Below are positions 2,017 through 47,033 of a stretch of DNA of 64,000 nucleotides, one piece after another; positions within the stretch are counted from its first letter, which is position 1, and the number at the start of each line of letters is the position of its first letter. The stretch is from an uncultured Candidatus Saccharibacteria bacterium (GTDB taxonomy: Bacteria > Patescibacteriota > UBA1384 > XYA2-FULL-43-10 > CAINNR01): the NCBI GenBank assembly GCA_964425445.1, contig CAYRLY010000001.1:5537-69536 (forward strand), in the 5' to 3' direction. The notes under the pieces were generated by a model, which was given only the letters and a program-made list of their open reading frames with translations, ran no database searches and had not been told where the DNA came from. The translations under genes and the position numbers were made by a program.

Positions 2017-3346
2017 AGCGCAGGTAATCACTATCGTTTTGCTTTTAATCTCTTCTTTGTCAGTGTTTTTTTTATTATTTTATTATTCAAGGCCTGAACC
2101 AGTCGAAATTTCTGATCGACCGCTGGTATTAGTATCTTTTCTTTACGAACATGGGGAAAAGGATTTAGCTAAAAATCAGAGAGAAAAAAATTTTCAGAGT
2201 GCCGAAAATCTCTACCGCATTATCACCGGTAATTCGGAAGTAATCGACCTGACTGAAGACATATCGGCTTCCAAATATGTAGACAGGTCATTTTCTTTTG
2301 CTTTCCCATTAGAACAATTTATCTCTACAGTTGATTTGTCACGAGAGGAAAACAATAATAATTTTAGTTACAGTCGAGCGCTAGAAGACAGTTCGGTGGA
2401 AAAGTTTGTATACGTTGACCAAGAAAAGAATTATGATATTTATTTTAAAACTAAAAATCATTCCGACACTTTGATAGTCAATGGAGAAAAAAAATCTGCG
2501 ATAAATTCATTCTCTGATTGGAGGATGGTTGGCAACTACTTGTCTGGAGAAAATAATACTATCACTTTCAAATCCGCTGATCAATATGATCAAGTAGTTG
2601 AAGTGGTTTTGGTTATTGACGAGGAAATCCAAAACAAAGACAATCAAAGAGAATATAGTCTAAATTATAAAAACGGAAGTTACTGTTTCAATTTAAGTGG
2701 TAAAAATTATGCGATTACTCATAATCCGAAAAACATATTTTTATCACCGATATCCTGCAATGACAATTGTGAAAATCCGAAATTTATCTCATATTATCCG
2801 GCAGATAATGGTAGAGTCTCTTTTGATAAGAAATCAATTAATATTATCACTAACTCGGGCTACTATCGATTAAATAACTACAACTTCTCCCGAAATTTAT
2901 TGGCATCGATTCTCATATTGTTTTTTGATCTCTTTATAATTTTATTGATCATAAATAAAGATTTCAAAAGGGGTGTTGTTCATTTTTTGAATGATTCGAA
3001 ATATGTTCTTAAAAAATTTTTTTCCGGAAACAAAATCCAAATTAGTAAAATAATAATATTAAATTTAATACTATTTATCTTGCGATTTATTTTGATATTT
3101 AGACCGTATCTCTCAATGACGCTAATTATTTTGATAAATGTTTTCTTGCTCTGGTGGTTTTTTCGATCAAAAAAATTGCTTTCGGTTGTGGCAATTTTGT
3201 TTTTGCTAATAGCTGCATCATTAAACAGTTTATTTCTGTTCGAGAATCTAGTTGAAAAACTTGCAACCGGTATTATTTTCCTGATAGTTTTTATAATACT
3301 CGAATCTCTAATTAATATAATTGACGATTCCCCTAACCAATATTGA
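2000..3346 (+). CDS. membrane protein, hypothetical (N-terminal TM anchor, Asn-rich extracytoplasmic middle, multi-TM C-terminus)
   Basis: ORF track; hydrophobicity pattern; overlaps the upstream gene stop, consistent with an operon. Confidence 0.4.
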   Translation: MTMKFKAQVITIVLLLISSLSVFFLLFYYSRPEPVEISDRPLVLVSFLYEHGEKDLAKNQREKNFQSAENLYRIITGNSEVIDLTEDISASKYVDRSFSFAFPLEQFISTVDLSREENNNNFSYSRALEDSSVEKFVYVDQEKNYDIYFKTKNHSDTLIVNGEKKSAINSFSDWRMVGNYLSGENNTITFKSADQYDQVVEVVLVIDEEIQNKDNQREYSLNYKNGSYCFNLSGKNYAITHNPKNIFLSPISCNDNCENPKFISYYPADNGRVSFDKKSINIITNSGYYRLNNYNFSRNLLASILILFFDLFIILLIINKDFKRGVVHFLNDSKYVLKKFFSGNKIQISKIIILNLILFILRFILIFRPYLSMTLIILINVFLLWWFFRSKKLLSVVAILFLLIAASLNSLFLFENLVEKLATGIIFLIVFIILESLINIIDDSPNQY

Positions 3347-3355
3347 TACATTAAG

Positions 3356-4312
3356 ATGAAAAAAGTAAACATATCGGTGATCATCCCGGTTTATAATGAA
3401 GCGGAGAATATCAATTCTCTTTATTCGGAGTTGAAGGAGGTTTTTGCTCTGACCGATCGCAAACACGAAATTATTTTTGTTAATGATGCCTCCAGAGATA
3501 AGACGTTGGCCGAATTAGAAAAAATTGCCGCCAAAGATAAGCAGGTTGTGGTCATTGATTTTATTCGCAACTTCGGCCAGACGGCGGCGCTTTCGGCCGG
3601 AATTGATAACTCTGTCGGCGAAATTATTATCCCGATGGATGGCGATGGCCAGAATGATCCAGCGGATATTCCGAAATTGGTGCAGAAGATCGACGAAGGA
3701 TTTGCAGTAGTTTCCGGTTGGCGCAAGAACAGGAAAGACGCCTTCATTCGAGTTTTACCCTCTCAAATCGCCAATTGGTTAATCAGGAAGATAACCGGAG
3801 TAAAAATTCATGACAACGGCTGTTCGCTCAAGGCCTATCGCCGCGAGGTAATTGATGGCGTTCAGCTTTATGGTGAGATGCACCGCTTTATCTCTGTCTA
3901 TGCCTCCTGGTCCGGTGGTAGGATCGCCGAGATTGTCGTCAACCACCGTCCGAGAACTTGCGGCAAAAGCAAATATGGTTTTTCCCGAATTTTTAAAGTT
4001 GTGCTTGACCTTCTGGTTATCCGCTTTCTCCATAAGTATATCTCCCGGCCGATTCACTTTTTCGGCAAATACGGGTTTTGGGCGATATTTGTTTCAATAG
4101 TTTTTTCTGCCTGGTCAATCTATCTAAAATTATTCCAAGATCTTTCAATCAATCGTACGCCGTTGCCGGTACTTTCATCGATGTTTTTAATCGTCGGACT
4201 TCAGTTAATATTAACCGGCGTTTTGGCCGAACTCCTGACTCGCACCTACTTCGAGTCACAGGGCAGAAAAGCATATAAAATAAAAAAGATAATTAATGGC
4301 AAAAAAAGCTAA
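3356..4312 (+). CDS. GT2 family polyprenol-phosphate glycosyltransferase (dolichyl-phosphate mannose synthase / ArnC / GtrB-like)
   Basis: N-terminal VSVIIPVYNEAENI motif, DGD(G) motif and two C-terminal TM helices typical of this family. Confidence 0.8.
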   Translation: MKKVNISVIIPVYNEAENINSLYSELKEVFALTDRKHEIIFVNDASRDKTLAELEKIAAKDKQVVVIDFIRNFGQTAALSAGIDNSVGEIIIPMDGDGQNDPADIPKLVQKIDEGFAVVSGWRKNRKDAFIRVLPSQIANWLIRKITGVKIHDNGCSLKAYRREVIDGVQLYGEMHRFISVYASWSGGRIAEIVVNHRPRTCGKSKYGFSRIFKVVLDLLVIRFLHKYISRPIHFFGKYGFWAIFVSIVFSAWSIYLKLFQDLSINRTPLPVLSSMFLIVGLQLILTGVLAELLTRTYFESQGRKAYKIKKIINGKKS

Positions 4313-5267
4313 AACAATTTTAGTTACCGGCTCTGCTGGCTTTATCGGCTTTCATTTAGCAAAGAAACTTCTTGAAGAAGGTGTGGATGTTGTTGGCATT
4401 GATAATTTAAATGATTATTATGATCCGAAATTAAAGACTGATCGTAACAAAATACTGAAAAGCCATGAAAACTATACTTTTCTTAAAGGCGATCTTGCTG
4501 ATGAAAAGTTTATTACTCAACTATTTAAAAAATTTAAATTTGACCAGATCTGTCACTTAGCGGCCCAAGCTGGTGTGCGCTACAGCATTGAAAATCCAGC
4601 CGTTTACATTCAATCAAATATAGTCGGCTTTGCTAATTTGATTGAAGCGACAAAAAACGCCGGCATTAGGAATTTTGTTTATGCTTCTTCAAGTTCAGTC
4701 TACGGCAATAGTGCAAAAGCGAAATTTTCAGTCAAAGATCGCACTGATGATCCGATCTCTCTCTATGCGGCGACGAAAAAAGCCGATGAGCTTATCGCCT
4801 ACACTTATAATCATTTATTTGGATTAAACTGCACGGGTTTGCGTTTTTTTACGGTTTATGGCCCTTGGGGCCGACCGGACATGGCGCCTTTTAAATTTAC
4901 TGGGCGGATTATTGCTGGCAAAGAGATTGAGGTTTACAACTTTGGTAAGATGAAAAGGGACTTCACCTACATCGACGACATTGTTTCCGGAATTATTGCC
5001 GCCCTAAGACGCCCCAGGGGCTTCAAGATTTATAATCTTGGCAATAACCGACCGGTGACCCTAAACCGTTTTATCAAATCTATAGAGGCTGCCTGTGGGC
5101 AAAAAGCGAAGATTAAATACTTGCCGCTACAACCGGGAGATGTTTTGAAAACCGCCGCTGATATTTCCGAATCAAAAAAGGATTTAAAGTTTTCGCCGAA
5201 GATAGATATCGAAGAGGGAATAAGAAAATTTGTTGATTGGTATAAAGAGTATTATGGCAAAAAATAA
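4296..5267 (+). CDS. NAD-dependent epimerase/dehydratase (UDP-glucuronate/UDP-glucose 4-epimerase-like)
   Basis: ILVTGSAGFIGFH Rossmann motif and YAATK catalytic motif (SDR extended family). Confidence 0.8.
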   Translation: MAKKAKTILVTGSAGFIGFHLAKKLLEEGVDVVGIDNLNDYYDPKLKTDRNKILKSHENYTFLKGDLADEKFITQLFKKFKFDQICHLAAQAGVRYSIENPAVYIQSNIVGFANLIEATKNAGIRNFVYASSSSVYGNSAKAKFSVKDRTDDPISLYAATKKADELIAYTYNHLFGLNCTGLRFFTVYGPWGRPDMAPFKFTGRIIAGKEIEVYNFGKMKRDFTYIDDIVSGIIAALRRPRGFKIYNLGNNRPVTLNRFIKSIEAACGQKAKIKYLPLQPGDVLKTAADISESKKDLKFSPKIDIEEGIRKFVDWYKEYYGKK

Positions 5268-12121: not shown

Positions 12122-12230
12122 CACATTATCAAGAGAGACGTTAGGGAATTGGCCCATTGAGCGTCCAGCAACCATCATTCACATAAGAGTGAACGGTGCT
12201 AAGTCCAAGCCGGATGGCAAGATAATTATT
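12122..12230 (+). promoter_or_regulatory. SAM-I (S-box) riboswitch in the metK leader
   Basis: Match to the SAM-I core: UAUCAAGAGAGACGUUAGGGAAUUGGCCCAUUGAGCGUCCAGCAACC ... GGUGCUAAGUCCAAGCC. The P1 3' strand GAUAAUUAUU pairs with the 5' AUUAUC. Confidence 0.8.
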
Positions 12231-12283: not shown

Positions 12284-13450
12284 ATGGAGAAAAGACTGTT
12301 CACCTCTGAATCGGTGACTGAGGGACATCCGGATAAGATGGCTGATCAAATTTCAGACGCCATTGTTGATGCGCTTTTGGAGCGCGACGAAAGAAGTCGA
12401 ATTGCAGTTGAAACGCTGCTTACAAATGGAGTTTGTGTAATTGCTGGTGAAGTTACAACAAGTGCCTATGTTGATATGGCAGAAATCGCCAGAGGGGTTA
12501 TCAAAGATATCGGATATAATGGTTGTGGTTTCCACCATGAAACTTCTGGGGTGATGACAGCAATAAAAGAGCAGTCATCAGATATTGCACAAGGTGTAGA
12601 CAGTTTTAAAAAGAGTGAAAGCGGGAAAATAGTTAAGGAAGATTTGGAACACTTAGGGGCTGGAGATCAGGGTTTAATGTTCGGTTATGCCTGTAACGAA
12701 ACACCGGAGCTGATGCCTCTGCCTATCGTTTTAGCTCATAAATTATGCCAACAATTAACAGAAGTTCGGAAGAAAAATATTGTGAAAGGCTTACGACCGG
12801 ACGGAAAGTCGCAGGTAACTGTCGAATATGTTGATGGTAGGCCAGAGAGGATTGACACCGTTTTAATCGCTGCACAACATGACCCAGATGTAAAAATTGC
12901 GACGATGAAAAAAGAAATTGAGAAAAATGTCATTGTGCCGATATTAAAAGAGCATGGTTATAAAATTGATTCGAAAACCAATGTTTATATAAATACTACT
13001 GGCAAATTTGTCATTGGTGGTCCGGAGGGCGACACAGGACTTACTGGTCGAAAAATAATAGTCGATACATATGGTGGATATGCTCGTCATGGTGGTGGTG
13101 CATTTTCTGGCAAGGACCCATCGAAGGTTGATCGCTCTGGTTCCTACATGGCCCGTTGGGTGGCGAAAAGCATTGTCAAGAGTGGATTAGCCGAAAAATG
13201 CGAAATCCAACTAGCTTATGCAATAGGGCGACCTGAACCATTATCAATTTATGTTGATACTTATGGTACCGGGAAGTTTTCGGAGGAGGAGATAGTAGAA
13301 AAAGTAAAGAAGAACTTTGATCTTCGACCTGGGATGATAATCAAAGAGTTGGGTTTGCGTAAACCGCTTTATCGACAGTGTGCTGCGTATGGACATTTTG
13401 GTAGAGATGATCTGAAACTTCCTTGGGAAAAAGCGAAGAAGATTAAATAA
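12284..13450 (+). CDS. metK: S-adenosylmethionine synthetase
   Basis: Bacterial MetK N-terminal signature [22 protein letters not shown]; [18 protein letters not shown]-terminal motif; RBS AGGAGG upstream. Confidence 0.92.
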
Positions 13451-13460
13451 TAATCACGGA

Positions 13461-13490
13461 AAAAGCCAACAGAACACTGTTGGCTTTTTT
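13461..13490 (+). terminator. intrinsic terminator after metK
   Basis: gccaacag-aaca-ctgttggc hairpin followed by a T6 run. Confidence 0.7.
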
Positions 13491-13492
13491 GA

Positions 13493-13527
13493 TTGACAAT
13501 TTAAAAAAAATAACATACGATAATATA
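13493..13527 (+). promoter_or_regulatory. sigma70-like promoter for the GC-rich GHMP kinase gene
   Basis: TTGACA, spacer of about 17 nt, then GATAAT/TATACG-like -10 immediately upstream. Confidence 0.4.
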
Positions 13528-13565
13528 CGATGTTCCGAGATTACCAACAAGGAGACTGATAACTG

Positions 13566-14675
13566 ATGCCTAGAGTGCAAATAGTACAGCCTATGATGAC
13601 ACCGACCTTCTTGGGTTGGGCGGCACTTCGGGGTATCGATTGGGGGAAGTGGAGCGATGTCAAGAAGTTCTTGGAGCTGATTGGCTACGGCATGGTCTGT
13701 AACCTGTCGATGGTTCTCTCACCGTGGGGATCCGGAGGCAGGATGAAGGGAGTGGAAGTCGCAGCCCGAGTAATGCCTATGGCTAGGCAGCAGGGCCGAG
13801 TCATCGTCAACGCTGGTAGTGATCCGTCCTACGATGCCCTTGTGAGTGCAGCCGACCTAGCTGGTGGCCAATTCAATGTCAAAGAGCTGGTACTCTGCAT
13901 TCTCTCAATGTTGGATCTTGATCCACTTCGAGAGAACGATCTACACATCGATCTTATCTCGCCTGCACTGCCGGGTGCCTCGCTTGGTACATCTGCCAGT
14001 GTACTAGTCGCAATCTTGAGCGCCTTCCTTGGCGACAGTTACACGGCGGACGAGATTTGGCTGATGGCCTTGCGGGCTGAGTACGAGATTGCTCGCCGTA
14101 ATACTGGCAACCAAGATCATATCGCCGCTATTATGGGAGCCAGAGAAGAAATAAAGACTCCAGCCAGACTAATCACCATCAACGATCTCTTCGATGTGGA
14201 GATCGAACACTTGGTGGTAGGCCCCATGATCTCTGCCGTCCTGCCAAATACTCTGGTGTCGGTCATCGGGGCCCATGACAGCTCCGATACTCACCAGAGG
14301 CTACAGGACGAGCTCGAGGGCGATCCGGAAATGGCGCGGGACAAACTCTGCGCAATGCGCAACACCGCCGTCATGGCCGCCAACGCTTTTCGTAGCGATT
14401 CACCAGATCAGCTATTTGCCTCGATTGACGCTTTGCTGGCTGCTCAGCAGTCTTTGAGTACTGGCCTGATAGGACCGTTCCACTGGAAGATAATTCAGGA
14501 CGCCAGGGCATACGGAGGCTATTCCGGTGTGCCTGGTGCCGGTGGCGACGGGGGGTCAGTGATCACTGTTTTTCAGGAAGCTGACTCCATGAGATGTTTC
14601 GCAGAGTCGATTCAGCTGGCTTTGCCGGACATCCGCCTTTTCCAGGCCGGCTACCCCGGCATCAACTTCGTGTAG
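13566..14675 (+). CDS. GHMP-family sugar/small-molecule kinase on a GC-rich islet
   Basis: GHMP ATP-binding motif LPGASLGTSASVLVA; RBS AAGGAG upstream; composition and codon use differ markedly from the neighbours. Confidence 0.65.
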   Translation: MPRVQIVQPMMTPTFLGWAALRGIDWGKWSDVKKFLELIGYGMVCNLSMVLSPWGSGGRMKGVEVAARVMPMARQQGRVIVNAGSDPSYDALVSAADLAGGQFNVKELVLCILSMLDLDPLRENDLHIDLISPALPGASLGTSASVLVAILSAFLGDSYTADEIWLMALRAEYEIARRNTGNQDHIAAIMGAREEIKTPARLITINDLFDVEIEHLVVGPMISAVLPNTLVSVIGAHDSSDTHQRLQDELEGDPEMARDKLCAMRNTAVMAANAFRSDSPDQLFASIDALLAAQQSLSTGLIGPFHWKIIQDARAYGGYSGVPGAGGDGGSVITVFQEADSMRCFAESIQLALPDIRLFQAGYPGINFV

Positions 14676-14702
14676 TGACCCGTTGGTCACTGCCTCTCTT
14701 TT

Positions 14703-14733
14703 GTCCCGACACCATGTCGGGACACTTTTTTTT
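14703..14733 (+). terminator. intrinsic terminator after the GHMP kinase gene
   Basis: gtcccgac-acca-tgtcgggac hairpin followed by a T8 run. Confidence 0.75.
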
Positions 14734-14764
14734 ACCCTGTAAATTTGCTAGTATCGAGGGAGTG

Positions 14765-16927
14765 ATGAAGGAATTTTCTATAAAAAGTTGGTTTAGAAAA
14801 TACTGGCCGCTTGTCGGCTATTTTTTGATTTCGATAATATTCCTCTATCCGGTTCTGATTCAAAGGGGAGTACCGTTTAAATATGATTGGCTTTGGCCCC
14901 TTTTTGATATGAATGAATATTGGCGGGTGATCGCCGACAAGAGTAGCTTTGGTCTGGTTTCATCACTTGGGAAATATGCCAATTCTTTCTTCGGCCTCTT
15001 TGGTTGGTTGCATATTTCGCCAAATATTGCCCTTAAAATATTTTTACTCCTGATCCATACTGCCTCTGGTTACGGTTTTTATCTCCTGGTTTCTAGAAGG
15101 ATCAAATCAGCCGCCGCTGCATTTATCGCCGGTATCGCCTACGCTTTTTCGCCCTATATATTTATTCGAACGATCGTCGGATTTATATATTCATTGATCG
15201 CTTATGCCTCATTGCCGTTTTTCTTAAATATCTTTATAAACCATAAGAAGAAAAAAATCCTTGATTTTCTGCTGATGGGTTTACTTTTTTCTTTGGTAGC
15301 TTCACAGATTCAGGCGGGGATACTTCTGGTGTTTCTGGTGATCGTCATCAGCTTCTCCGAGAGAAAGAAGATTGTATTTCGATTAAAAGAGCTTGTCCTA
15401 TTGTTAGCTTCTGTCTTGATCGTCGCTTTGCCTTGGATTATTTACCTTCTGTTTATCGGTGGCAATGTGCAACCCATTGATGGTGGGCAGGTGACGACGC
15501 TAAATTATATCGCCAATTTGCCTCATAGTTTGCGTAATGTATTGTTTTTCTCTGATCACATAATTACCAGGGATTACTTTTATTCATTTGCCAGAGAGCC
15601 GATAGTAATCATCGGTTTTGTTCTTTTTTATCTGGTTGCTCTATTTTCACTCTTCGATAAAAAGAACCGATCCCTCGTGCTCTCCCTGATAATTTCGACC
15701 TTGATAATAATTCCATTTTCTATCGGGCCGACCAAAATTTTCACCGGTTTTTACACCTTCGTCTTCAATCATCTTTCGCAGCTGGCTGTCTTTCGCGAAA
15801 CCTATCATTTCCAGTTTCTGCTCTCGTTTAACTTTATCGCCTTATTTGCCTTTGGCCTTTCGTATATTTTCAAAAATTTAAGCAACAAAAGACCCTTCTT
15901 CTGGCTGATAAAAGTAATTGCTGCCTCATCAATAATAATTGTGATTGCACCTTATTTGGGTCTTGATTATGCCGGCTATTTTCGCCTTCAAGAGATTCCA
16001 GATGAATACCATCAAGCAGATGAGTTTTTTCAAGAAAACGCCGACTATTGTAAAAAAGCTTATTACCCACCAAACTTGGGATTTGTCCGATTCGCTTCTG
16101 ACCCGACAGCAGAAACTAGTGCCTCAAACTCGGATATTATTGCTTGGGATTTTGGCTTGCCTCGAGTAACCGATGCCGCCTCAGTTTTGTCGATCGCCGG
16201 TGATGAAATGTATCAGCGCAATCATCTGACGTCACAATTTTTGGAATTTTCTGACAATGGTGAATTTGCCGCTCTGGCCAAGGAGCAGGGAGTTGACTGC
16301 GTCATCATCCGTGATGATCTTACTAGCTTATATTTTTTGGCGAATAATGTCTGGCGTGATCCGTCATTTGATGTTCGCTTGAAGTGGATGAATCAAGATA
16401 TGTTGTCATTGGCCGAAAGTAAGATCGGTCTTCGTCTTGATAAAAAATTCGGGGGCAAAATTTACCTTTATAAAGTTGAGTCAGATAAGAAATATGAGGC
16501 AAGTAGGTTGATCGATCAAGTTCCCGATGGCATAAAATTGCCAATTACTGATTGGGCGAATAATTATGATTGGTATACCGAGGGTTGGGCGAGGGGACGG
16601 TACAATTTTTGGCGCAAACACCTTTTTGCTCAACTTGCACAGGATTTTATTTATACAAACAAATCCGACTCCGAAGTTAGCGGAAAGATCGCCGAGAGCG
16701 GCTCCTATGACCTGGTAATTAGATATTTGGATGGAGGAGAGGAGGGGAAATTCGAAATCCGAATATCGAAATTCGAAACAATTATCGAGAAAAAATCGGG
16801 GGAAGAAAGACTTGTCGTCAAAAATCTTGGAGCGATTGATATCAAGAAAGGCGATACAATCACAATTAAAAATACATCTGGCGAGAACGCTATCGCCGAT
16901 CTGTTGTTGGTCGGGAGTAAGGAGTAA
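14765..16927 (+). CDS. large polytopic membrane protein with a C-terminal extracytoplasmic domain (YfhO/GT-C-like), hypothetical
   Basis: Start at ATG 14765 preceded by GAGGGAG. The ORF track start at 14594 lies inside the upstream GC-rich gene and terminator and is rejected. About 13 TM helices followed by a soluble domain of about 250 aa. Confidence 0.55.
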   Translation: MKEFSIKSWFRKYWPLVGYFLISIIFLYPVLIQRGVPFKYDWLWPLFDMNEYWRVIADKSSFGLVSSLGKYANSFFGLFGWLHISPNIALKIFLLLIHTASGYGFYLLVSRRIKSAAAAFIAGIAYAFSPYIFIRTIVGFIYSLIAYASLPFFLNIFINHKKKKILDFLLMGLLFSLVASQIQAGILLVFLVIVISFSERKKIVFRLKELVLLLASVLIVALPWIIYLLFIGGNVQPIDGGQVTTLNYIANLPHSLRNVLFFSDHIITRDYFYSFAREPIVIIGFVLFYLVALFSLFDKKNRSLVLSLIISTLIIIPFSIGPTKIFTGFYTFVFNHLSQLAVFRETYHFQFLLSFNFIALFAFGLSYIFKNLSNKRPFFWLIKVIAASSIIIVIAPYLGLDYAGYFRLQEIPDEYHQADEFFQENADYCKKAYYPPNLGFVRFASDPTAETSASNSDIIAWDFGLPRVTDAASVLSIAGDEMYQRNHLTSQFLEFSDNGEFAALAKEQGVDCVIIRDDLTSLYFLANNVWRDPSFDVRLKWMNQDMLSLAESKIGLRLDKKFGGKIYLYKVESDKKYEASRLIDQVPDGIKLPITDWANNYDWYTEGWARGRYNFWRKHLFAQLAQDFIYTNKSDSEVSGKIAESGSYDLVIRYLDGGEEGKFEIRISKFETIIEKKSGEERLVVKNLGAIDIKKGDTITIKNTSGENAIADLLLVGSKE
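16748..16778 (+). repeat. in-frame heptanucleotide tandem repeat (CGAAATC / CGAATAT / CGAAATT units) inside the membrane protein gene
   Basis: aaattcgaaatccgaatatcgaaattcgaaac, translated GKFEIRISKFETI. Confidence 0.6.
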
Positions 16928-16945: not shown

Positions 16946-18193
16946 TTAGACTCTAGTTCTTTTTCTCCGTCGAATGAGGATTATGAGGACTGCAAGGAGC
17001 GCAAGAGCAAGCACTCCGGCAGCGATGGTTATTATCAGATTATAATTTTTACTATCTTTAACCGCTTCAGCAACGCTTTTTGGTGGGTTTATATCATCCT
17101 CAGTCAAAATATTTATCGATCCACCTTTGGCTTGTGAGATTTCGAAGATAATCTCATCACTAACGGGTGTCAATACCTTCTCTTTCTGCCCTTGGACACT
17201 GAGTTTATAATGGCCGGCGGGTATAAAATAATCCATCTCGAGAGTGAAATTGCCATCCTCGTCAGACTCAATCTCAAGTTTTTTACCCTCTGGGAGTGCT
17301 GGCGTTGGGGTTAGAGTGATTTTAGCTAAATAATTTGGCTCGATGATTCCGGAGATCTTCAGCCCAGAGACGGTGCCATCATCAATCTTGTTTATAAAAT
17401 TTTCCATCTTCTCGATCTTGATCGATCTTGGTTTACTTAGATTCTCATCTACTTTCGGATCAGGCTCTTTGATATTTATCTGAAAATGGGTTGTAGAGCC
17501 CCAACCGTCAGCATTTTGCGCTCGAATATGAAAATAATGAGTCCCAACCGGTTGATTGTCATAGCTTGCAGAGGTGTTGGCTGATGTCGATTTTGCCGGC
17601 GGGGTTGTCGTTGCGTTTTGATCGAGAAGATAAGAAAATGCGGTGACACCAGATGCTTTCGTCCATGAAAGGTCAATTTTGGTTGCTTCGTAGGATTCTG
17701 CTGGATTTGGATGAGATGATGAAGTCACATTTATTGCTCCCGGAGGCGTTGGTGCTCGGGTAATTGAATAGGAAGCGCTTCCTGCACCGGTACCAACTTC
17801 GGCACCGTCATTCGCCATCCGCACAGAGGATACTGTCACCGCTCCGCTACCGACTCCGGTCGCTTTTAGTCTTATTGTCGCCACCCTCATCGAAGAGACT
17901 GCCGGCACCAGCATCCCCTTGAAGTGGCCCCCGTTAGCTGGGATTGAAATCCAAGTTGCTCCGCCAGCGGCGAAAGAAACAATCGATACCGGCCCAGAGA
18001 CCGATATTGTTCCCTCGATGGCATTAAAAGTTGCCCCCGAAGCATCAACAGTGACAGTAAATGTCTGACCGACGGTCACGTTTCCGCCACCAGAAGCATA
18101 AATACCGGCTGCTGCTGCGTTCATTGGCAATATTAGAAAATAAAATACACTCGAAACAGTCAGCATTGTCGAAATCAGTCTTTTCATCAGCAT
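16946..18193 (-). CDS. cell-surface protein with signal peptide, Ig/FN3-like beta-rich domains and a C-terminal TM anchor with basic tail
   Basis: N-terminal hydrophobic leader; Thr/Ser-rich beta repeats; C-terminal IITIAAGVLALALLAVLIILIRRRKRTRV. Confidence 0.5.
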   Translation of the reverse strand: MLMKRLISTMLTVSSVFYFLILPMNAAAAGIYASGGGNVTVGQTFTVTVDASGATFNAIEGTISVSGPVSIVSFAAGGATWISIPANGGHFKGMLVPAVSSMRVATIRLKATGVGSGAVTVSSVRMANDGAEVGTGAGSASYSITRAPTPPGAINVTSSSHPNPAESYEATKIDLSWTKASGVTAFSYLLDQNATTTPPAKSTSANTSASYDNQPVGTHYFHIRAQNADGWGSTTHFQINIKEPDPKVDENLSKPRSIKIEKMENFINKIDDGTVSGLKISGIIEPNYLAKITLTPTPALPEGKKLEIESDEDGNFTLEMDYFIPAGHYKLSVQGQKEKVLTPVSDEIIFEISQAKGGSINILTEDDINPPKSVAEAVKDSKNYNLIITIAAGVLALALLAVLIILIRRRKRTRV

Positions 18194-18223
18194 GAAATTA
18201 TCCTCCCAAAATTATTTTTTATT

Positions 18224-19204
18224 TTAGCTTCCCCAAGCTCCAGCTAATATCGACAGATCAAGAAGGTCGACAGTACCATCAGAATTTAGATCAGCATCGG
18301 CGTTATTGCCACCCCAGTGAGTTGCAATCAAGGAGAGATCTAGTAGGTCGACATTCCCATCACGGTTTGCATCGCCAGTTTTTCTTTCTGCTGGTGGCGG
18401 TGTATCAGAGACCAAAACTGGATATGGGACAGAAATATATTCAGGTATGGTATAAGCTTTCATCCAGCTTCCCTTGGTGTTTAAGAAACTCTCAATTTCC
18501 GCTGCGCTTAATGGGTTAGCATTTCGGAAATTATTGTCAGAAATAATGTTTGTTGACGAATAATCCCCACCGTTTGGTGTCCCACCCCACCAGGATATCC
18601 AGTTGGTGTAGAAAGATGACCCGGTATTATAAGAAGAATAATGGGGGGTGTATTTATAAAGTGCACAAGATCCGGCGTTGGCAGTAGCAATTGTTCCGCC
18701 ATCAACAGAAACGGAGTTATTTCCTTCGCAATAGGTTCCATTTGCTGGGTTGCCATCGCCAGCAAGGTTTCGAAGCTGGGCGGTTGCGTAGGCGATCTGC
18801 TGACCGACGCCGCCATAATTTTCGGCGCGGTATGAGTAATCCGGCTTGTTGTATTTAGTATCAGTACAGTCTGTGCCCAAGAGCAAACAATTCGCCATTC
18901 TTTCATCGTAGTTGTAGAAAAGAGGCCAAGCCCTGGTGGTGTCTGAAGACGGTTCGGATCTAGTAATTGCTGAGCTCTCTTTTTGCAGCATAATCAAGAT
19001 AAGCCTGGGATTTATGTCGTGTTGTGCTGACTCGTCATAGATCAATTGTGCAACAGTCTTATTAAAAAAGGTATCAATATAGGCTTGTCTGGCGTTAACG
19101 TAACGAAGCTCGACATGGTCAGCTAGCACTTTTATCGGCGCAATCAAAAACACGACCAGCAAAATTGCTACAATTAGACTGTAATTTTTTGTTTTTGCCC
19201 TCAT
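18224..19204 (-). CDS. secreted protein with a C-terminal double dockerin-type repeat
   Basis: Signal/TM leader; C-terminal DANRDGNVDLLDLSLIATHW ... DLNSDGTVDLLDLSILAGAW, a dockerin type I calcium-binding repeat pair. Confidence 0.6.
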   Translation of the reverse strand: MRAKTKNYSLIVAILLVVFLIAPIKVLADHVELRYVNARQAYIDTFFNKTVAQLIYDESAQHDINPRLILIMLQKESSAITRSEPSSDTTRAWPLFYNYDERMANCLLLGTDCTDTKYNKPDYSYRAENYGGVGQQIAYATAQLRNLAGDGNPANGTYCEGNNSVSVDGGTIATANAGSCALYKYTPHYSSYNTGSSFYTNWISWWGGTPNGGDYSSTNIISDNNFRNANPLSAAEIESFLNTKGSWMKAYTIPEYISVPYPVLVSDTPPPAERKTGDANRDGNVDLLDLSLIATHWGGNNADADLNSDGTVDLLDLSILAGAWGS

Positions 19205-19205
19205 T

Positions 19206-19700
19206 TTACCCTCTCGTTGCCTCCTGATCTTCTGGAAAGAAATATTCTTTTTCTAGAGTATCAAGTTTGGAGTTTAATATTTCACTATCTGGATTGGCTG
19301 TGATCCCAGCCTCCAGAGTTTTTTTCGCTTCTTCTAGTTGACTTAATAATATCTCCGCTTCTGACTTGAGCGAATAGTAGCTACTGTTATTCGGATTCGC
19401 GGCAATTGCTTGATTCAGCTTGTTTATCGCTTCTTGATAATTTTTGTTTTCAAAATCTTCTACCGCAGAAACATAAAGGACTTGATCAGGGGACAGCCCA
19501 TCATCCTCGTCTTGATCTGACTGGTTCACGACATCTTCCTGGATCGGCGATTCCTCTGCTGGGGTATCTTCGCTATCTTTGGCGCCAGTTTCCGTTTTCT
19601 GTTCTTTTCCAATCAAGTAAAGCCCAGCGACAATGAAAATCACTGTAATCACCAAGAGGGTGATGAAATAATAAAGGGTTCGGAAGTTTTTCCCGTTCAT
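19206..19700 (-). CDS. membrane-anchored TPR-repeat protein
   Basis: N-terminal TM helix, acidic linker, TPR-like NKNYQEAINKLNQAIAANPNNSSYY. Confidence 0.5.
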   Translation of the reverse strand: MNGKNFRTLYYFITLLVITVIFIVAGLYLIGKEQKTETGAKDSEDTPAEESPIQEDVVNQSDQDEDDGLSPDQVLYVSAVEDFENKNYQEAINKLNQAIAANPNNSSYYSLKSEAEILLSQLEEAKKTLEAGITANPDSEILNSKLDTLEKEYFFPEDQEATRG

Positions 19701-19832
19701 ATTTACCTCAAAAAGTATTATATCATATTAAAATTCTACTTTGAATCTATGACAGAACACTCTATTTAAAAAAATATCAGCTCTGGTAAACGAAAAAATC
19801 TATACCGACAGCATACATTTAGTTTTTTTCTA

Positions 19833-19862
19833 TTGACACAGCATAGATTTATGGTATATAAT
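19833..19862 (+). promoter_or_regulatory. strong sigma70-like promoter in the 620-bp intergenic region
   Basis: TTGACA, 18-nt spacer, then TATAAT. Confidence 0.55.
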
Positions 19863-19868
19863 AAGGTC

Positions 19869-19966
19869 AACATTAACAACTTAATATGACTTTGATCGCG
19901 GAGGGGCGATAAGTGTTTCTGTTAGTTGTGTCGTATTGTGCAGCTCCTCTTGCGAGGAGTTTTTTT
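19869..19966 (+). ncRNA. candidate small transcript / structured 5' leader ending in a GAGGAG-containing hairpin plus T7 run
   Basis: Promoter at 19833; ctcctc-ttgc-gaggag hairpin at 19944-19959 followed by TTTTTTT. The hairpin sequesters a Shine-Dalgarno sequence placed 8 nt before ATG 19968. Confidence 0.3.
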
Positions 19967-19967
19967 A

Positions 19968-20123
19968 ATGTTTCGAGCCGTTGGCGAGAAGCTTTTGGAA
20001 AGTTGTTCTAAGGTGATTAGATCCAAAAGTTTCTCGCCAAAAAATGCCAAAACAAAAACAGAAAGATCTGAAGAAAAATTGGCGAGGAACCTGGGGAAGG
20101 CAATCATAGAGTATGTCTCTTGA
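19968..20123 (+). CDS. possible 51-aa basic small protein (MFRAVGEKLLES...)
   Basis: ATG preceded by GAGGAG; contains an 18-bp near-perfect inverted repeat (19981-19998 and 20023-20040), which argues for an RNA structure instead. Confidence 0.2.
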   Translation: MFRAVGEKLLESCSKVIRSKSFSPKNAKTKTERSEEKLARNLGKAIIEYVS

Positions 20124-20279
20124 TTGACTTCTATAAGTCAATTAAGGGATGCTACGAAGCGATTTCCAAGTCGTTTTCGCGACACCCCTCAAAGGCGTAA
20201 GTGACGCGACAGGGCAATAATTAAAAAATTTTGTTCCCTATAAGTCCGCAAATCCTTGCGCCTTTTTTAATTGATAAAA

Positions 20280-20312
20280 GTTCGACAGAAAAAATGTTCA
20301 CCTGTTATAATA
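20280..20312 (+). promoter_or_regulatory. extended -10 promoter (TGTTATAAT) for pcrA, near-leaderless
   Basis: TGnTATAAT at 20304-20312, 10 nt before the ATG at 20323. Confidence 0.35.
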
Positions 20313-20322
20313 CAAAAGCTCA

Positions 20323-22218
20323 ATGAAAGATTTACTAAAAGATTTAAATAGTGCGCAGCAAGAAGCGGTCCGAACTACCGAAGGGCCGGTTTTAATTTTA
20401 GCTGGGGCAGGGAGCGGTAAAACTCGGGCATTGACTCACCGCTTGGCTTATCTAATTTCTGAGAAAAAAGTTTCCCCGACGAACATTTTGGCAGTTACTT
20501 TCACCAATAAAGCAGCGGGAGAAATGAAACAGCGGACAGAAGCGCTGCTAGCCGAAAGCCCTAAGTCGAAAGTCGAAAGTGCGAGGAGTATTCTTCCGTG
20601 GCTGGGAACCTTTCATTCAATTTGTGTAAAAATTCTGCGCCGAGAGGCAAAGCATATCGGTTACCCCTCAGGCTTTACGATTTATGATAGTCAGGATCAG
20701 CTTTCGGTTGTCAAGAAAATTATGCAAGATAAGGGGATCGACCCCAAACATTACAACCCAAATGCCGTTCTTCATTTCATTTCTGGGGCAAAAAACGAAT
20801 TTATCTCTCCTGAGGGTTACGAAAAGTATGTTAACTCGCCGTTCGAAGAAGTAGTCTCGACTGTCTATAAGGAATATCAAAAGTATCTTAAAACTGCTTT
20901 TGGTATGGATTTTGATGATCTTTTGGTTTTGTGTCTTAAACTTCTGACTGAGAACAACGAGATTTTGCAGAAATACCAGAATATTTTTAAATATATTCTG
21001 ATTGATGAATATCAGGACACAAATCACGTTCAATATCTTTGGGCGAAGTTGTTGTCAGAAAAGAGCAAGAATATTTGTGTTGTGGGTGATGATTCACAAT
21101 CAATTTACGGTTTTCGCGGGGCAAATTTTCGCAACATTCTCAATTTTGAGCGTGATTTTCCAGGGGCGAAAGTAATAAAACTAGAACAAAATTATCGCTC
21201 GACCGGTAATATTTTACGAGCAGCTGATGAACTCATCAAATATAATAAACAGAAGACTGAGAAGACTCTGTGGACCGAAAATCCAGTAGGATCTCCACTT
21301 CTTGTATACCAGGCGTTGAATGAAAAAGATGAAGCCGAATTTGTGGCGATGGAGACCAGGGGGCTGGCGGCAGTTTCGGGTAAATGGTCGGATTTTGCCG
21401 TCCTCTACCGTACCAACGCTCAATCGCGAGCAGTAGAGGAAGCTTTCATTCGCTTTGGCATTCCATACCGAGTAGTTGGTGGAATCCGTTTTTATGAGCG
21501 TAAAGAGATAAAAGATATCTTGGCTTATCTTAAATTAATTGCCAATCCTAATGATCGAGTATCTTTTGAGAGGATCGTAAACGTTCCAGCAAGAGGGATT
21601 GGATCAAAAACCCTGATAAAATATTTCTCTGGCCTATCCGGTCTAAACCCTGAAGTTCCGGAAAAGATTCAAAATTTTTTAGATATGGTACATCTTATCA
21701 GGGACAAGGCAAAAGAGCTTTCTGTGGCTGATCTGATAGATTTGATAGCAGAAAATAGCAGCTACAAGGAGTATATTTTGGATGGTACTCCGGAGGGCGA
21801 GGGGCGCTACGAAAACATCATGGAGTTAAAATCTGTTGCCGCATATAACGATGCCTTGAGCCTCGAAAAACCGCTAGAAAACTTTCTGGAAAAAGTCGCG
21901 CTGTATCAAGATGCCGATGATTATGATTCCAATTCAAACGTTGTTACTCTGATGACATTGCATGCTGCAAAAGGCTTGGAATTTAAAAATGTTTTTTTGG
22001 TTGGTGTCGAAGAGGGAATTTTACCACATTCTAGAAGTGTCGGAGATCAGAGTGAGGTAGAGGAAGAGAGACGACTTTGTTATGTAGGCCTCACCAGGGC
22101 GATGAAGAAGCTTTACATCTTATATGCCTCCGAGAGAATCTATTTCGGCAATCCGCAGATTAACCAGCCTTCGAGGTTTATTTGTGAAATACCCGACGAT
22201 GTCAAAAAAGAGTTATGA
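20323..22218 (+). CDS. pcrA: ATP-dependent DNA helicase PcrA/UvrD (compact, 631 aa)
   Basis: LNSAQQEAV...AGAGSGKTRALTHRLAYLI Walker A and UvrD motifs throughout. Confidence 0.88.
   Translation: MKDLLKDLNSAQQEAVRTTEGPVLILAGAGSGKTRALTHRLAYLISEKKVSPTNILAVTFTNKAAGEMKQRTEALLAESPKSKVESARSILPWLGTFHSICVKILRREAKHIGYPSGFTIYDSQDQLSVVKKIMQDKGIDPKHYNPNAVLHFISGAKNEFISPEGYEKYVNSPFEEVVSTVYKEYQKYLKTAFGMDFDDLLVLCLKLLTENNEILQKYQNIFKYILIDEYQDTNHVQYLWAKLLSEKSKNICVVGDDSQSIYGFRGANFRNILNFERDFPGAKVIKLEQNYRSTGNILRAADELIKYNKQKTEKTLWTENPVGSPLLVYQALNEKDEAEFVAMETRGLAAVSGKWSDFAVLYRTNAQSRAVEEAFIRFGIPYRVVGGIRFYERKEIKDILAYLKLIANPNDRVSFERIVNVPARGIGSKTLIKYFSGLSGLNPEVPEKIQNFLDMVHLIRDKAKELSVADLIDLIAENSSYKEYILDGTPEGEGRYENIMELKSVAAYNDALSLEKPLENFLEKVALYQDADDYDSNSNVVTLMTLHAAKGLEFKNVFLVGVEEGILPHSRSVGDQSEVEEERRLCYVGLTRAMKKLYILYASERIYFGNPQINQPSRFICEIPDDVKKEL
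20551..20588 (+). repeat. GTCGAAA heptamer tandem repeat, in frame in pcrA
   Basis: ctaagtcgaaagtcgaaagtgcgagg, translated PKSKVESARS. Confidence 0.55.
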
Positions 22219-26907: not shown

Positions 26908-27014
26908 TATTTTTTGAAATTACCCTTTACCCATCGGCGCCTCAGGCGCTTGTTTTTGTGTTGAAAATGGGGTTTAGTTAAATTAGTTCCCACTCTGTTT
27001 CGGAGGCGATCACC

Positions 27015-27626
27015 GTGAGAATCAGCTGCGCTTTGTGGGTTTTAGCTATTGCGGCGGTTTCCTCCGCTGCTGATAGTCAAGTGGAGTTTCGGGGTGAGTA
27101 CTTCTTCAATCGTGATAGTTTCGACTTCTTTGAGCTCACTAATGAGCATTGGCCGGCGACGATCGAAATGCGGTTTTGCTCGCCTGATTCCGGGGGGAAG
27201 AACCGGCTTGGTCTCGCCTTTTCTTTGGGGTCAACACCAAAGATACATGAGAAACTGCGATTGGGATTGGCTTTTGACATCGACCCCAGAACGGTTGACC
27301 CGCTAAACCCTCATCGGGTGGATCGGGACAACCGATTCTACATCTATGGGAGATCAGAGTTTGATTGGGCTACCTTTCATCTCCTCTACCCGTTAGCCCA
27401 GAACTCCAAAGGACATGATTGGCATTGGCGGGTCGAGATTGATGACCTTCGGTACCCGATTCTGTCATCCGGTGACTTTGTTTCCAGTGCTATTGCTGAT
27501 GCCAGCTACAGCCCGGATCCTGATCTTGGGCTCGATTACAACTGCGGTTTGCGTTTCCAATACAAAGAGTATTGGATTGATGCAACTACCGAATGTTTCT
27601 CGGTTGGTGCCACGATTATCAGGTAA
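27015..27626 (+). CDS. GC-rich secreted hypothetical protein (GTG start, signal peptide)
   Basis: GGAGG 8 nt before the GTG; N-terminal MRISCALWVLAIAAVSSAA leader; aromatic-rich beta-like body. Confidence 0.4.
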   Translation: MRISCALWVLAIAAVSSAADSQVEFRGEYFFNRDSFDFFELTNEHWPATIEMRFCSPDSGGKNRLGLAFSLGSTPKIHEKLRLGLAFDIDPRTVDPLNPHRVDRDNRFYIYGRSEFDWATFHLLYPLAQNSKGHDWHWRVEIDDLRYPILSSGDFVSSAIADASYSPDPDLGLDYNCGLRFQYKEYWIDATTECFSVGATIIR

Positions 27627-27649
27627 TTCTCACCGCGCCCGCACCATGC

Positions 27650-27679
27650 AGGCGCTTTTTTTCATGAAAAAAAGCGCCT
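27650..27679. terminator. perfect palindromic bidirectional terminator
   Basis: aggcgc-TTTTTTT-catg-AAAAAAA-gcgcct. Confidence 0.7.
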
Positions 27680-27716
27680 TGATACTGCTCCAAGGCGCAC
27701 GGCTTAGGGGTGATGT

Positions 27717-28028
27717 TCAGATAGGATACTCGAAGTGTATGAGGTTGGTTCTCCCTCCCTCACAATCTTCTCGACATATCCTCATGCCGATTCCCAAAAT
27801 CGGCTTTTCATACTCGGCGATGCGGGATGCCACCAGCCTCAATCTCGCTTCCTGAAAGCTGGGGTTGATTTTGATCTCCTCCCCGAGCCATCCGGGATCG
27901 CCGACGTCAATAAGGATCTGGATTCTTTCTATGTCTCTTGTCGACGTTGCCTCCAGTTCATAGAACAGTAGCTCGATTTTCCCAAATATGACTTGGCGAC
28001 GAGTGATCTGCTTAAGCACGAACATCAC
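27717..28028 (-). CDS. GC-rich small hypothetical protein (103 aa), convergent with the previous gene
   Basis: ORF track; GC-rich codon usage; no recognisable motif. Confidence 0.35.
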   Translation of the reverse strand: MMFVLKQITRRQVIFGKIELLFYELEATSTRDIERIQILIDVGDPGWLGEEIKINPSFQEARLRLVASRIAEYEKPILGIGMRICREDCEGGRTNLIHFEYPI

Positions 28029-39057: not shown

Positions 39058-39144
39058 GGGCGTATGGTGGAATTGGTAGACACGCATGCCTTAGGAGCAT
39101 GTGGAGTAAAATCCATGGGGGTTCGAGTCCCTCTACGCCCACCA
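39058..39144 (+). tRNA. tRNA-Leu (anticodon TAG)
   Basis: 87-nt cloverleaf with acceptor gggcgta/tacgccc, anticodon loop cuUAGga, long variable arm, T-arm ggggg-ttcgagt-ccctc and encoded CCA. Confidence 0.85.
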
Positions 39145-39203
39145 AGCTGAGGAAGTAATTCGTTTAGTTTTTCGGCTTGGTGAGTGCAATATTTCGGGGA
39201 CGA

Positions 39204-39292
39204 GAAAGCCGGAGGCGCGACTGGCGCCGAGGCGGGGTCGAGCGAAATTTCAGCAGAAATTTACGCGTGACCGAGTCCCTCTACGCCCACCA
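39204..39292 (+). other. conserved GC-rich structured element (copy A) ending in a 21-nt direct repeat of the tRNA-Leu(TAG) 3' end. Possibly a miniature integrative element, an att remnant or a tRNA-linked small RNA.
   Basis: gaaagccggag + hairpin + gaggcggggtcga + hairpin with a CAGCAG loop + gtgacc + cgagtccctctacgcccacca. The last block is identical to 39124-39144. Confidence 0.6.
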
Positions 39293-39348
39293 ATTTGAGA
39301 AAAAAACTGGATTTATTCCAGTTTTTGTTATTTTGTTATAATAAATGC

Positions 39349-39537
39349 ATGGACGATAGTGTTTTGTCTGACAACGATCTCGATGAGATCGATGACGAAT
39401 ATTACGAAAAGCTGGAAGAAGAGCTACTGGAAGAAGCCGATAAATCAGACCACAAAGAGATGCCGGTTTCCGGCAGAAGTGTTTTTGAGATTGAACGCCT
39501 GAAAAGAAAGAAACAAGAGGACAGAGACAAGGATTAG
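39349..39537 (+). CDS. small highly acidic protein (62 aa), hypothetical
   Basis: ATG just after TTGTTATAAT; preceded by the terminator hairpin 39303-39330. The ORF track's upstream extension at 39295 overlaps the terminator and is rejected. Confidence 0.3.
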   Translation: MDDSVLSDNDLDEIDDEYYEKLEEELLEEADKSDHKEMPVSGRSVFEIERLKRKKQEDRDKD

Positions 39538-39635
39538 TAACCCATAATTATAATATATCTCGTACCTTTTTCTTCTAAATTTGTGAGCCGTGTGTTTCTG
39601 GCTCTTTTTATTTTGTCCCTTAGATGTTATAATTT

Positions 39636-40535
39636 TTGCCAATGAAAAAAGAGCGGAAAATCATTTGTATTGTTGGCCCGACGGCCAGCGGAAAAACTGG
39701 CTGGGGGGTTTCTGTTGCCAGGAAGTTCAATGGTGAGATTATTTCAGCTGATTCTAGGCAGGTTTACCGTGGTTTAGATATTGGCACAGGTAAAGATCTC
39801 GAGGACTATCGTGATGTCAAATATCATTTAATTGACATTTGTGAACCGGGTGTATATTTTACGATGTTTGATTGGCTTGAGCGCGCCAGAGAAATTATTG
39901 AAGATATTTTTACTCGTGGCAAAACACCTATTATTGTTGGAGGGACAGGGTTATATGTTCAAGCATTGATCGAAGGATTTGAGCTAAAAGTCGAAAGTCA
40001 AAAGTCGAAAGTCAAAAGATATCGGAGGGAGGAACTGGAATCTAAGTCGCTAGAAGAATTGCAAAAAATCATTTTTAAATTGAAAATTTTAAATTCTAAA
40101 TTGGATATGAATAATCCTCATCGAATAATCCGGGCAATTGAGAAAGTCCAGTCCGGTGAAATTGCTAATAAAAAGAAACCGGATTTTCAAGCATTGCAAA
40201 TTGCTATCGATCTACCACGCGATGTTTTATATGATCGAATAGATCAAAGAGTTGAAGAGCGTTTTGAACAGGGAATGCTGGAAGAGGTAAAAAGCTTGAT
40301 TGCCTCTGGAGTTGATAAAAAATGGTTGCTTGGATTGGGGCTTGAATATCGAATTATTGGTAGATTTGTGCTAGGTGAAAATAACCAAATCTTTGATGAG
40401 ATGAAACAGGAACTTAAATACAAAATTCATGCTTTTGCCCGACGCCAGCTAACTTGGTTTCGGCGTTTTCCGGAGATTGTTTGGTGTAACGATTTAAAAT
40501 CGGCTGAAGAAGAAATTAAAAAATTTCTGATATAA
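39636..40535 (+). CDS. miaA: tRNA dimethylallyltransferase
   Basis: IICIVGPTASGKTG P-loop and SADSRQVYRGLDIGTGK. Confidence 0.9.
   Translation: MPMKKERKIICIVGPTASGKTGWGVSVARKFNGEIISADSRQVYRGLDIGTGKDLEDYRDVKYHLIDICEPGVYFTMFDWLERAREIIEDIFTRGKTPIIVGGTGLYVQALIEGFELKVESQKSKVKRYRREELESKSLEELQKIIFKLKILNSKLDMNNPHRIIRAIEKVQSGEIANKKKPDFQALQIAIDLPRDVLYDRIDQRVEERFEQGMLEEVKSLIASGVDKKWLLGLGLEYRIIGRFVLGENNQIFDEMKQELKYKIHAFARRQLTWFRRFPEIVWCNDLKSAEEEIKKFLI
39987..40018 (+). repeat. GTCGAAA/GTCAAAA heptamer tandem repeat (4 units), in frame in miaA
   Basis: aaagtcgaaagtcaaaagtcgaaagtcaaaag, translated KVESQKSKVK. Confidence 0.6.
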
Positions 40536-40542
40536 TTGATTT

Positions 40543-41832: not shown

Positions 41833-41852
41833 ATATTTTCTGGAATGTTGGA

Positions 41853-43388: not shown

Positions 43389-43389
43389 A

Positions 43390-43707: not shown

Positions 43708-43727
43708 AATTATTATATAAATTTATA

Positions 43728-43802: not shown

Positions 43803-43894
43803 GTAATTACACTAAAAAATTTATCATTTTTTTACCTTGTTGTAAAGAATTGATTCTTGTTGATTGACTAAATTTTAATTTTAAAACCCGCGGT

Positions 43895-47032: not shown

Positions 47033-47033
47033 T

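Follow-up and report, generated by a model that had tools for sequence, protein, structure and literature searches.

What is encoded in the long intergenic region upstream of the helicase gene pcrA was the question raised by a 64,000-nucleotide stretch of contig CAYRLY010000001.1 (the whole of which is called the window here). The region, 622 nucleotides (nt) at positions 19701-20322, is flanked by a gene for a 164-amino acid (aa) TPR membrane protein (19206-19700, minus strand; Pfam TPR_19), divergent from pcrA, and by pcrA itself (20323-22218, plus strand). The initial annotation of this region listed a strong promoter, several hairpins and palindromes and a short open reading frame (ORF), all of which were found again, and proposed that one or two small RNAs or a regulated small protein are encoded there. 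The conserved features are parts of one RNA gene and not separate oddities. With a probability of roughly 0.6, positions 19868-20268 of the plus strand constitute one stand-alone gene for a large structured non-coding RNA belonging to a family absent from Rfam.

Extent and conservation of the RNA gene

The corresponding regions of close relatives were gathered via PcrA homologues and their contigs. The named genomes among these relatives are Candidatus Berkelbacteria, and the window PcrA is 74% identical to the PcrA of one of them (L001; relatives are designated by such numbers below). The RNA was present in all 12 relatives reached in this way (PcrA 55-92% identical), in one copy each and at most 10 kb upstream of pcrA, so that the region is RNA-coding and not junk, as the initial annotation had supposed. 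In relatives with 66-92% PcrA identity the alignment holds from the promoter to the final U-run, and the RNA measures 400-577 nt, compared to 401 nt in the window.

The promoter of the RNA gene (19833-19862, plus strand) matches the consensus at 12 of 12 positions, with the -35 hexamer TTGACA at 19833-19838, an 18-nt spacer and the -10 hexamer TATAAT at 19857-19862. Both hexamers are kept in seven aligned orthologous regions, in which the bases between the -10 hexamer and the transcript vary, and the distant member L123 likewise has a 12 of 12 promoter, in agreement with the strong promoter first annotated. Conservation sets in 6-7 nt past the -10 hexamer, at (C/U)AACAUUAACAA, the bases just before being variable. 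Consequently, the transcript start was placed at about 19868-19869. The end of the 401-nt gene (19868-20268) was set at the U-run that follows the last hairpin.

When metagenomes were scanned with the invariant 19-mer GGGATGCYACGAARCGATT, 31 loci were obtained; 22 of them contain the RNA, and nine are chance matches in coding DNA. The scan yielded 19 distinct full-length sequences. A covariance model of the 3' domain (R1) then recognized the RNA in the five more distant relatives (PcrA 55-64%): L122 (141.7 bits; PcrA 64%), L123 (99 bits; 61%), L126 (96 bits; 57%), L125 (55 bits; 58%) and L124 (18.8 bits, E about 0.002-0.004; 55%). R1 found no RNA at 79 pcrA loci from other phyla, and a broader model (R2), applied with filters off to 11 pcrA loci of other candidate-phyla classes, gave noise alone, up to 14 bits. 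The RNA is thus represented by 24 distinct sequences of 400-640 nt, conserved over their full length, and has so far been seen only in Candidatus Berkelbacteria and close relatives.

Secondary structure and covariation

All members share a fixed order of blocks, in which near-invariant segments alternate with insertions of widely differing length at fixed places, either hairpin tips or a variable region (VR1). In the window, the 5' AU-rich segment AACAUUAACAACUUAAUAU (19869-19887), near-invariant across the main group of members, is followed by hairpin H1 (19895-19910; stem AUCGC/GCGAU, loop GGAGGG at 19900-19905) and by the U/G-rich VR1 (19911-19941), variable in both length and sequence. Hairpin H2, AGCUCCUC-UUGC-GAGGAGUU, with its seven-U run (19942-19966) was picked up by a terminator scan as an internal terminator-like element; in DNA letters it reads AGCTCCTC-TTGC-GAGGAGTT at 19942-19961, with T7 at 19960-19966. 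A short conserved joint separates it from hairpin H3 (19981-20040), which is followed by a purine-rich linker (20041-20114; A 49%, G 24%) with GCCAAAA repeats and a small GAGGA-containing element at 20079-20097. The 3' domain consists of Ha, UUGAUUGACUU-CUAU-AAGUCAAUUAA (20120-20145, within an inverted repeat at 20116-20149), the irregular, near-invariant rod Hb, GGGAUGCUACGAAGCGAUU...GUCGUUUUCGCGACACCCC (20146-20188), and Hc (20193-20263), which has the invariant apical part CAGGGCAAUAAUUAAAAAAUUUUGUUCCCUAUAAG and, together with its U-run at 20263-20268, acts as the terminator in the window genome (20193-20268). The tcgcgac/gacgcga palindromes of the initial annotation fall within further helices.

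The transcript 19868-20322 folds far more stably than its shuffles (z = -6.7; none of 100 equal). The minus strand folds almost equally well (z = -6.4), and therefore folding energy alone does not give the strand. Three features fix the plus strand: the promoter, the runs of U, and the numerous G-U pairs, whose minus-strand counterparts would be C-A.

Compensatory changes were then evaluated in the 3' domain. With 16 sequences, RNAalifold gave 51 pairs, 13 of them with double compensatory changes, and 97.0% of cells pair compared to 92.4% in shuffles and 40-50% with slid partners; none of 500 shuffles reached the observed values. With 20 sequences including the distant members, double changes are seen in 28 of 50 pairs, and the share of paired cells is 97.8%. 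In the 16-sequence alignment, compensatory changes are seen in four of the eight pairs of Ha, 99% of cells pair in Hb (10 pairs with double changes once the distant members join), and 100% pair in Hc, eight pairs having double changes. The internal helix of Hc, mostly GCG/CGC, is ACU/AGU in L089 and ACAG/CUUGU in the group of L091 and L109, and its apical stem GGG/CCC becomes CGGA/UCCG in L123, while the apical part of Hb is swapped in L126 for CUCCGUC-GAAA-GACGGAU. In L123, L124, L125 and L126 a separate terminator hairpin follows Hc; Hc is thus more than a terminator, namely a functional element with a second role as terminator in the window.

H3 corresponds to the 18-bp stem of the initial annotation, which had regarded a helix of this length as atypical of coding sequence. 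Its 19-nt arms (19981-19999 and 20022-20040, around a 22-nt apical part) are 95% complementary, the sole mismatch being a G-U on the plus strand. H3 does behave as an RNA feature: it occupies the same position in all members (59-155 nt, with a variable tip), and its 14 basal pairs, in a hand-made alignment, show 93.8% of cells paired and double changes in six pairs. The H3 arm has two matches in the whole window versus 0.03 expected, and it occurs at this locus alone in the 64 kb, in which R1 likewise found no second copy. The single copy in the window and the syntenic locus in relatives speak against a repeated or mobile element, such as a repetitive extragenic palindromic (REP) sequence or a miniature inverted-repeat transposable element (MITE).

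VR1 (33 nt in the window when delimited at 19910-19942, so that it shares one base each with H1 and H2; 33-125 nt in the family) and the linker (74-128 nt) have mirror-image compositions in all family members, U/G-rich for VR1 (mean U 49%, G 23%, A 19%, C 8%) and A/G-rich for the linker (A 49%, U 15%). The two could form a long imperfect duplex or serve as separate tracts for single-strand-binding proteins. When a long VR1:linker duplex was evaluated, its large energies were no better than those of shuffles of the same composition (z mostly -1.7 to +0.9), and it was rejected. Also set aside were an all-against-all single-column covariation scan of the conserved blocks, which was swamped by phylogenetic correlations and uninformative, and a contact between a 5' UUA and the UAA of the Hc internal loop (UUG:CAA in L109), for which there was one event only.

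Coding potential of the region

The region could instead be an mRNA for a small protein, after the model of leader peptides or type I toxin mRNAs, with the hairpins controlling translation of either the basic 51-aa ORF at 19968 or a hydrophobic 32-aa ORF at 19913. The ATG at 19968 opens a 51-codon frame nested in a 65-aa TTG ORF (19926-20123) and is preceded by GAGGAG, which the initial annotation took as its Shine-Dalgarno sequence. For the second ORF, GGAGGGG stands 5 nt before GUG 19913, AUG, UUG or GUG is similarly spaced in several relatives, and the peptides encoded in VR1 are hydrophobic. The low A content of VR1, on the other hand, accounts for its open frames. The ATG at 19968 is missing in all members outside the window group, most relatives having GUUAAU instead, and GAGGAG is the hairpin arm opposite GCUCCUC; its reading as a Shine-Dalgarno sequence was therefore abandoned. 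The start codon of the 32-aa ORF is missing in L083, L088, L090 and L092.

The frames themselves differ between relatives. Depending on the member, the invariant H2 block would translate as AAPLARSFF, LLLRGVFL or CSS-stop, indicating that conservation operates at the nucleotide level. Indels between orthologues are not multiples of three, including one of 4 nt by which the window and L001/L083 differ at the 3' end of the 51-aa frame, and the 51-, 32- and 61-aa ORFs have no match in Pfam. No ORF conserved in position, frame and peptide was found in the family members, linker included. A regulated small protein is consequently very improbable. As for the hairpin that the initial annotation regarded as either the terminator of a small RNA or a translational control structure, its terminator-like anatomy is upheld, whereas translational control is not, the ORF being unconserved.

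Relation of the RNA to pcrA

The RNA is always on the pcrA strand, directly adjacent to pcrA in the window and never beyond the 10 kb mentioned above, and it holds two terminator-like hairpins, as would be expected of a long regulatory 5' leader (riboswitch or attenuator) of this gene. However, pcrA has its own extended -10 promoter (TCGACA, 18 nt, TATAAT with TG; 20282-20311, plus strand), as the initial annotation had noticed. This promoter lies outside the RNA gene and bounds it, ends 11 nt before the ATG and is kept in relatives. Moreover, L083, L086, L090, L103 and L123-L126 have unrelated genes, in part oppositely oriented, in the interval separating the RNA from pcrA. In L123 this interval measures 6.5 kb, and the gene that follows the RNA has the opposite orientation. 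In L124 and L125 the RNA is located after a dnaX-dnaB block, and in the L103 group its upstream neighbour also differs. A conserved sensor controlling the same downstream gene was not found among the relatives, which differ in the gene downstream of the RNA or have it in the opposite orientation, and no known aptamer was matched in the Rfam scans. The RNA has no fixed downstream gene and is not a pcrA leader, an explanation which we consider scarcely credible.

Two further observations concern the pcrA side of the locus. The arrangement TG-n-TATAAT ending 11 nt before the ATG (window 20282-20325) has similar counterparts in relatives (TGnTAnnAT, about 8-10 nt, ATG); since 11 nt leave no room for a Shine-Dalgarno sequence, pcrA may be translated from a leaderless or near-leaderless mRNA. 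In addition, foreign-looking high-GC (guanine plus cytosine) ORFs are inserted exactly between the RNA 3' end and pcrA in several relatives (L083, 3534-4000; L086, 7597-8000; L090, 7018-8000; L103, about 2580-4350 in the oriented copy). Among them are genes for small hydrophobic proteins and an ORF of 347 aa and high GC content that is, by sequence alone, a putative oxidoreductase. No integrase was seen among these inserts. This suggests an insertion hotspot after the RNA gene; tRNA and tmRNA genes are known as insertion hotspots.

Internal terminator-like hairpin and proposed contact between H1 and H2

H2 with its seven-U run has the anatomy of an intrinsic terminator, raising the question of whether the region produces one RNA or two. 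H2 is kept in the main group and in L122, L123, L124 and L125, with differing stem sequences. One possibility is that the region makes two RNAs, chiefly a small one of about 100 nt (19868-19966) with a constitutive terminator at its end, and a second one from the downstream 300 nt through read-through or processing. The canonical terminator kept in most lineages is in line with this, and the 101-nt piece folds well alone (z = -2.7). However, the interval from the U-run to the next conserved block is too short for a promoter, and both halves always co-occur in the same order. The most conserved part is the 3' domain, which in the two-RNA scheme would depend on read-through anyway. L126, in which H2 and the U-run are lacking, still has GGAGGGGC fused to H3 and the 3' domain, and in many members the 5' end is predicted to be able to pair with sequence after the U-run. 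Two separate products are thus improbable. Of the one or two small RNAs initially annotated, the RNA is retained and the small size and the duality are not: the data indicate a single unit of about 400 nt with a fixed block order.

The GGAGGG motif occurs in all 24 members, including L126, in which there is no clear H1 stem, and the stem itself covaries (UUCGC/GCGAA in most members, UGCC/GGCA in L123, CUCG/CGAG in L124). The H1 loop and two bases of its stem, GGAGGGGC, are complementary to GCUCCUC(C), the 5' arm of H2. This complementarity takes the form GGAGGGGC:GCUCCUCC in the main group, UGGAGG:CCUCCA in L123 and GGAGGGAA:UUCCUUCC in L125, in both of these from the H1 loop to H2, and GGAGGG:CCCUUC in L124 and L122, the partner lying in the H2 loop in L124 and extending from the last part of the 5' arm into the loop in L122. 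The H2 stem itself is wholly different in these outlying lineages. The H2 5' arm does not vary within the main group, in contrast to the 3' arm (GAGGAGU, GGGAGU, GGGGAGU), as would fit a strand with two partners. In minimum-free-energy folds, the long-range GGAGGGGC:GCUCCUCC pairing appears in L083, L086, L088, L099 and L110, and the two local hairpins in other members. From these sequence patterns the H1-H2 contact is read as real, either as a switch between anti-terminator and terminator or as a static kissing or loop-helix contact.

Two other roles considered for the 5' part were not retained. As an antisense seed, the 5' segment had four matches in the window at up to two mismatches, one of them the segment itself, versus 1.2 expected, which is unconvincing. 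A sponge for a CsrA-type GGA-binding protein was rejected on the estimate that the GGA count is about that expected from composition.

Comparison with known RNA families

Rfam 15 was scanned over the window at gathering thresholds, a check put forward with the initial annotation, and no family matched the RNA gene. When E values up to 5-10 were allowed, the window region, L125, L126 and six metagenomic members gave chance hairpin matches to microRNA or plastid models and nothing else. ARAGORN predicted no tmRNA, and full-text literature searching found no description of this RNA.

The consensus promoter and a stand-alone, single-copy gene in every relative examined would nevertheless suit a diverged universal housekeeping RNA, 6S RNA being the least excluded, followed by RNase P RNA, tmRNA and signal recognition particle (SRP) RNA. 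None of the four is listed for five member sets at E up to 10. Diverged RNase P RNAs are known to escape models in candidate-phyla bacteria, 10 of 35 complete genomes of the candidate-phyla radiation having one that scores below Rfam thresholds (Lui et al. 2021, PMC8172020). Therefore, universal motifs were searched directly. By regular-expression search, the P4 motifs of bacterial RNase P RNA (RF00010/RF00011; GGAAAGUC; 5' GGAAAGUCC; 3' ACAGAA..GGCUUA) were each found in none of the 24 members. The 5' and 3' ends of the RNA are not paired with each other as in the P1 helix of RNase P RNA, the 3' end being the self-contained Hc and the 5' end pairing at most just past the internal U-run. Furthermore, RF00010 still found the RNase P RNA in all genomes of that study, including one of Berkelbacteria (PMC8172020). 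The window RNA resembles these diverged RNase P RNAs (PMC8172020) in size range, lineage, sub-threshold status in Rfam and expansion segments in helices; it differs from them in having no P4 motifs, no pairing of 5' and 3' ends and no RF00010 match at E up to 10.

The tmRNA T-loop (GGUUCRAnUCC, of a tRNA-like domain with 3' CCA) and the SRP helix 8 motif (GNAR tetraloop, GGAA/AGCA internal loops) were both absent from all 24 members, and no ORF conserved in position or frame could serve as a tmRNA tag reading frame. 6S RNA (SsrS) forms a rod some 180 nt long, in which a large central bubble imitates an open promoter. It shares with the window RNA a stand-alone gene, a consensus sigma-70-type promoter, a clade-wide presence and a sequence poorly conserved between clades. 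No motif test distinguishes 6S RNA, which was thus judged on size and architecture. These do not fit: the window RNA has 400-640 nt, six or more separate helices, extended single-stranded tracts rich in U/G or in A, and no 6S match in Rfam. In sum, a known RNA type diverged beyond recognition retains a slim chance, and the RNA appears to represent a new family that has no assignable relative.

The closest analogues are analogues in kind, namely lineage-restricted large structured RNAs such as OLE. OLE (ornate, large, extremophilic) RNA (RF01071), ROOL, GOLLD and the raiA motif are, like the window RNA, several hundred nt long with many covarying helices and near-invariant stretches, stand-alone and lineage-restricted, with a function that is not deducible from sequence; the window RNA has one copy per locus. 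No sequence or structure match to them was obtained (Rfam, E up to 10), and the likeness gives no evidence of homology. OLE RNA has the genes oapA, oapB and oapC nearby, in contrast to the window RNA, which has no conserved partner genes. The candidate-phyla host with its genome of about 1 Mb, the variable expansion segments and the internal terminator-like hairpin also set the window RNA apart from this group.

For the internal terminator-like hairpin, the comparison is with attenuator- or riboswitch-gated non-coding RNAs, an example being the B12 riboswitch upstream of EutX/Rli55. In these as well, a terminator hairpin lies inside a non-coding transcript, and its 5' arm has an alternative upstream partner, which could make production of the full-length RNA conditional. 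The window RNA differs in having no known aptamer, in the variable segment between the competing strands and in the L126 member that has no terminator.

Proposed function of the RNA

We favour, as a guess, a stand-alone RNA that acts as a scaffold and carries a conditional terminator of its own. Its working part would be the invariant 3' domain together with H3, a platform for a protein or other macromolecule, comparable to other large bacterial RNAs that are ribonucleoprotein scaffolds. The 5' domain would set the amount of full-length RNA. Should the H1 loop GGAGGGGC pair with the H2 5' arm GCUCCUCC during transcription of H2, the terminator would be blocked and the polymerase would enter the 3' domain. 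If the GGAGG loop were occupied, or if H1 and H2 folded locally, transcription would stop at the seven-U run (about 19966) and give an RNA of about 100 nt. Alternatively, the same covariation would result if H1 and H2 were in static contact, of the kissing or loop-helix type. That the 3' domain and H3 form a binding platform and that the H1:H2 pairing gates terminator read-through, with a regulated ratio of short to full-length RNA, is proposed with low confidence. An undescribed class of RNAs of 400-640 nt, universal and single-copy in the Berkelbacteria lineage, with an essential ribonucleoprotein or catalytic 3' core and a self-dosing GGAGG/CCUCC switch, is possible, and is proposed only tentatively.

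Several points weigh against this reading. L126 has neither H2 nor an internal U-run, and a conditional terminator can thus not be essential to the family. In the main group both GGAGGGGC and GCUCCUC are invariant, so that the H1:H2 covariation comes from four outlying lineages and was judged by eye. The alignments used for the 20-sequence 3' domain and for the H3 base were fitted to the structure and lean towards it. Among the neighbouring genes at the loci of the relatives, none is conserved that points to a function or a partner. The start and the end of the RNA, as well as the existence of a short isoform, are all inferred. Finally, the candidate helix P1, which in the minimum-free-energy fold would pair 19869-19876 with 19965-19972 (UUAAUGUU) just past the internal U-run, is kept as tentative; its equivalent in other relatives, AUUAACAA with UUGUUAAU, is in a shifted register, and in L125 it is not evident.

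Surroundings of the locus in the window

Upstream of the RNA gene, a conserved minus-strand block (16946-19700) encodes, besides the TPR membrane protein already mentioned (164 aa), a protein of 415 aa that is secreted or anchored and one of 326 aa whose dockerin-like match is weak. This block is syntenic in most relatives, the L103 group having a 738-aa membrane protein instead. Elsewhere in the window, a SAM riboswitch (S-box, RF00162) was detected at 12123-12228 on the plus strand (52.2 bits, above the gathering threshold), and eight tRNA genes are present within about 11 kb (39058-50422), close-set at 44590-44791 and 46648-47117. The 1-kb bins at 13001-15000 and 27001-28000 have a GC content of 0.47-0.51, compared to the low value of about 0.40 for the window, and may be rRNA-like or foreign segments.

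Significance of the RNA family

To our knowledge, large and highly conserved structured RNAs are rare in bacteria, and each characterised case that we know of (RNase P, tmRNA, 6S, OLE) revealed distinct biology. Berkelbacteria and their relatives are uncultured and have genomes of roughly 1 Mb. The one complete Berkelbacteria genome listed has 872,881 bp (PMC8172020). The maintenance of 400-640 nt with a near-invariant 3' domain in 12 of 12 relatives with such small genomes argues for an important function, hidden from protein-based annotation. The covariance model R2 is usable across all genomes of the group, and the family may offer a test case for an RNA that regulates its own synthesis through a loop-to-terminator contact.

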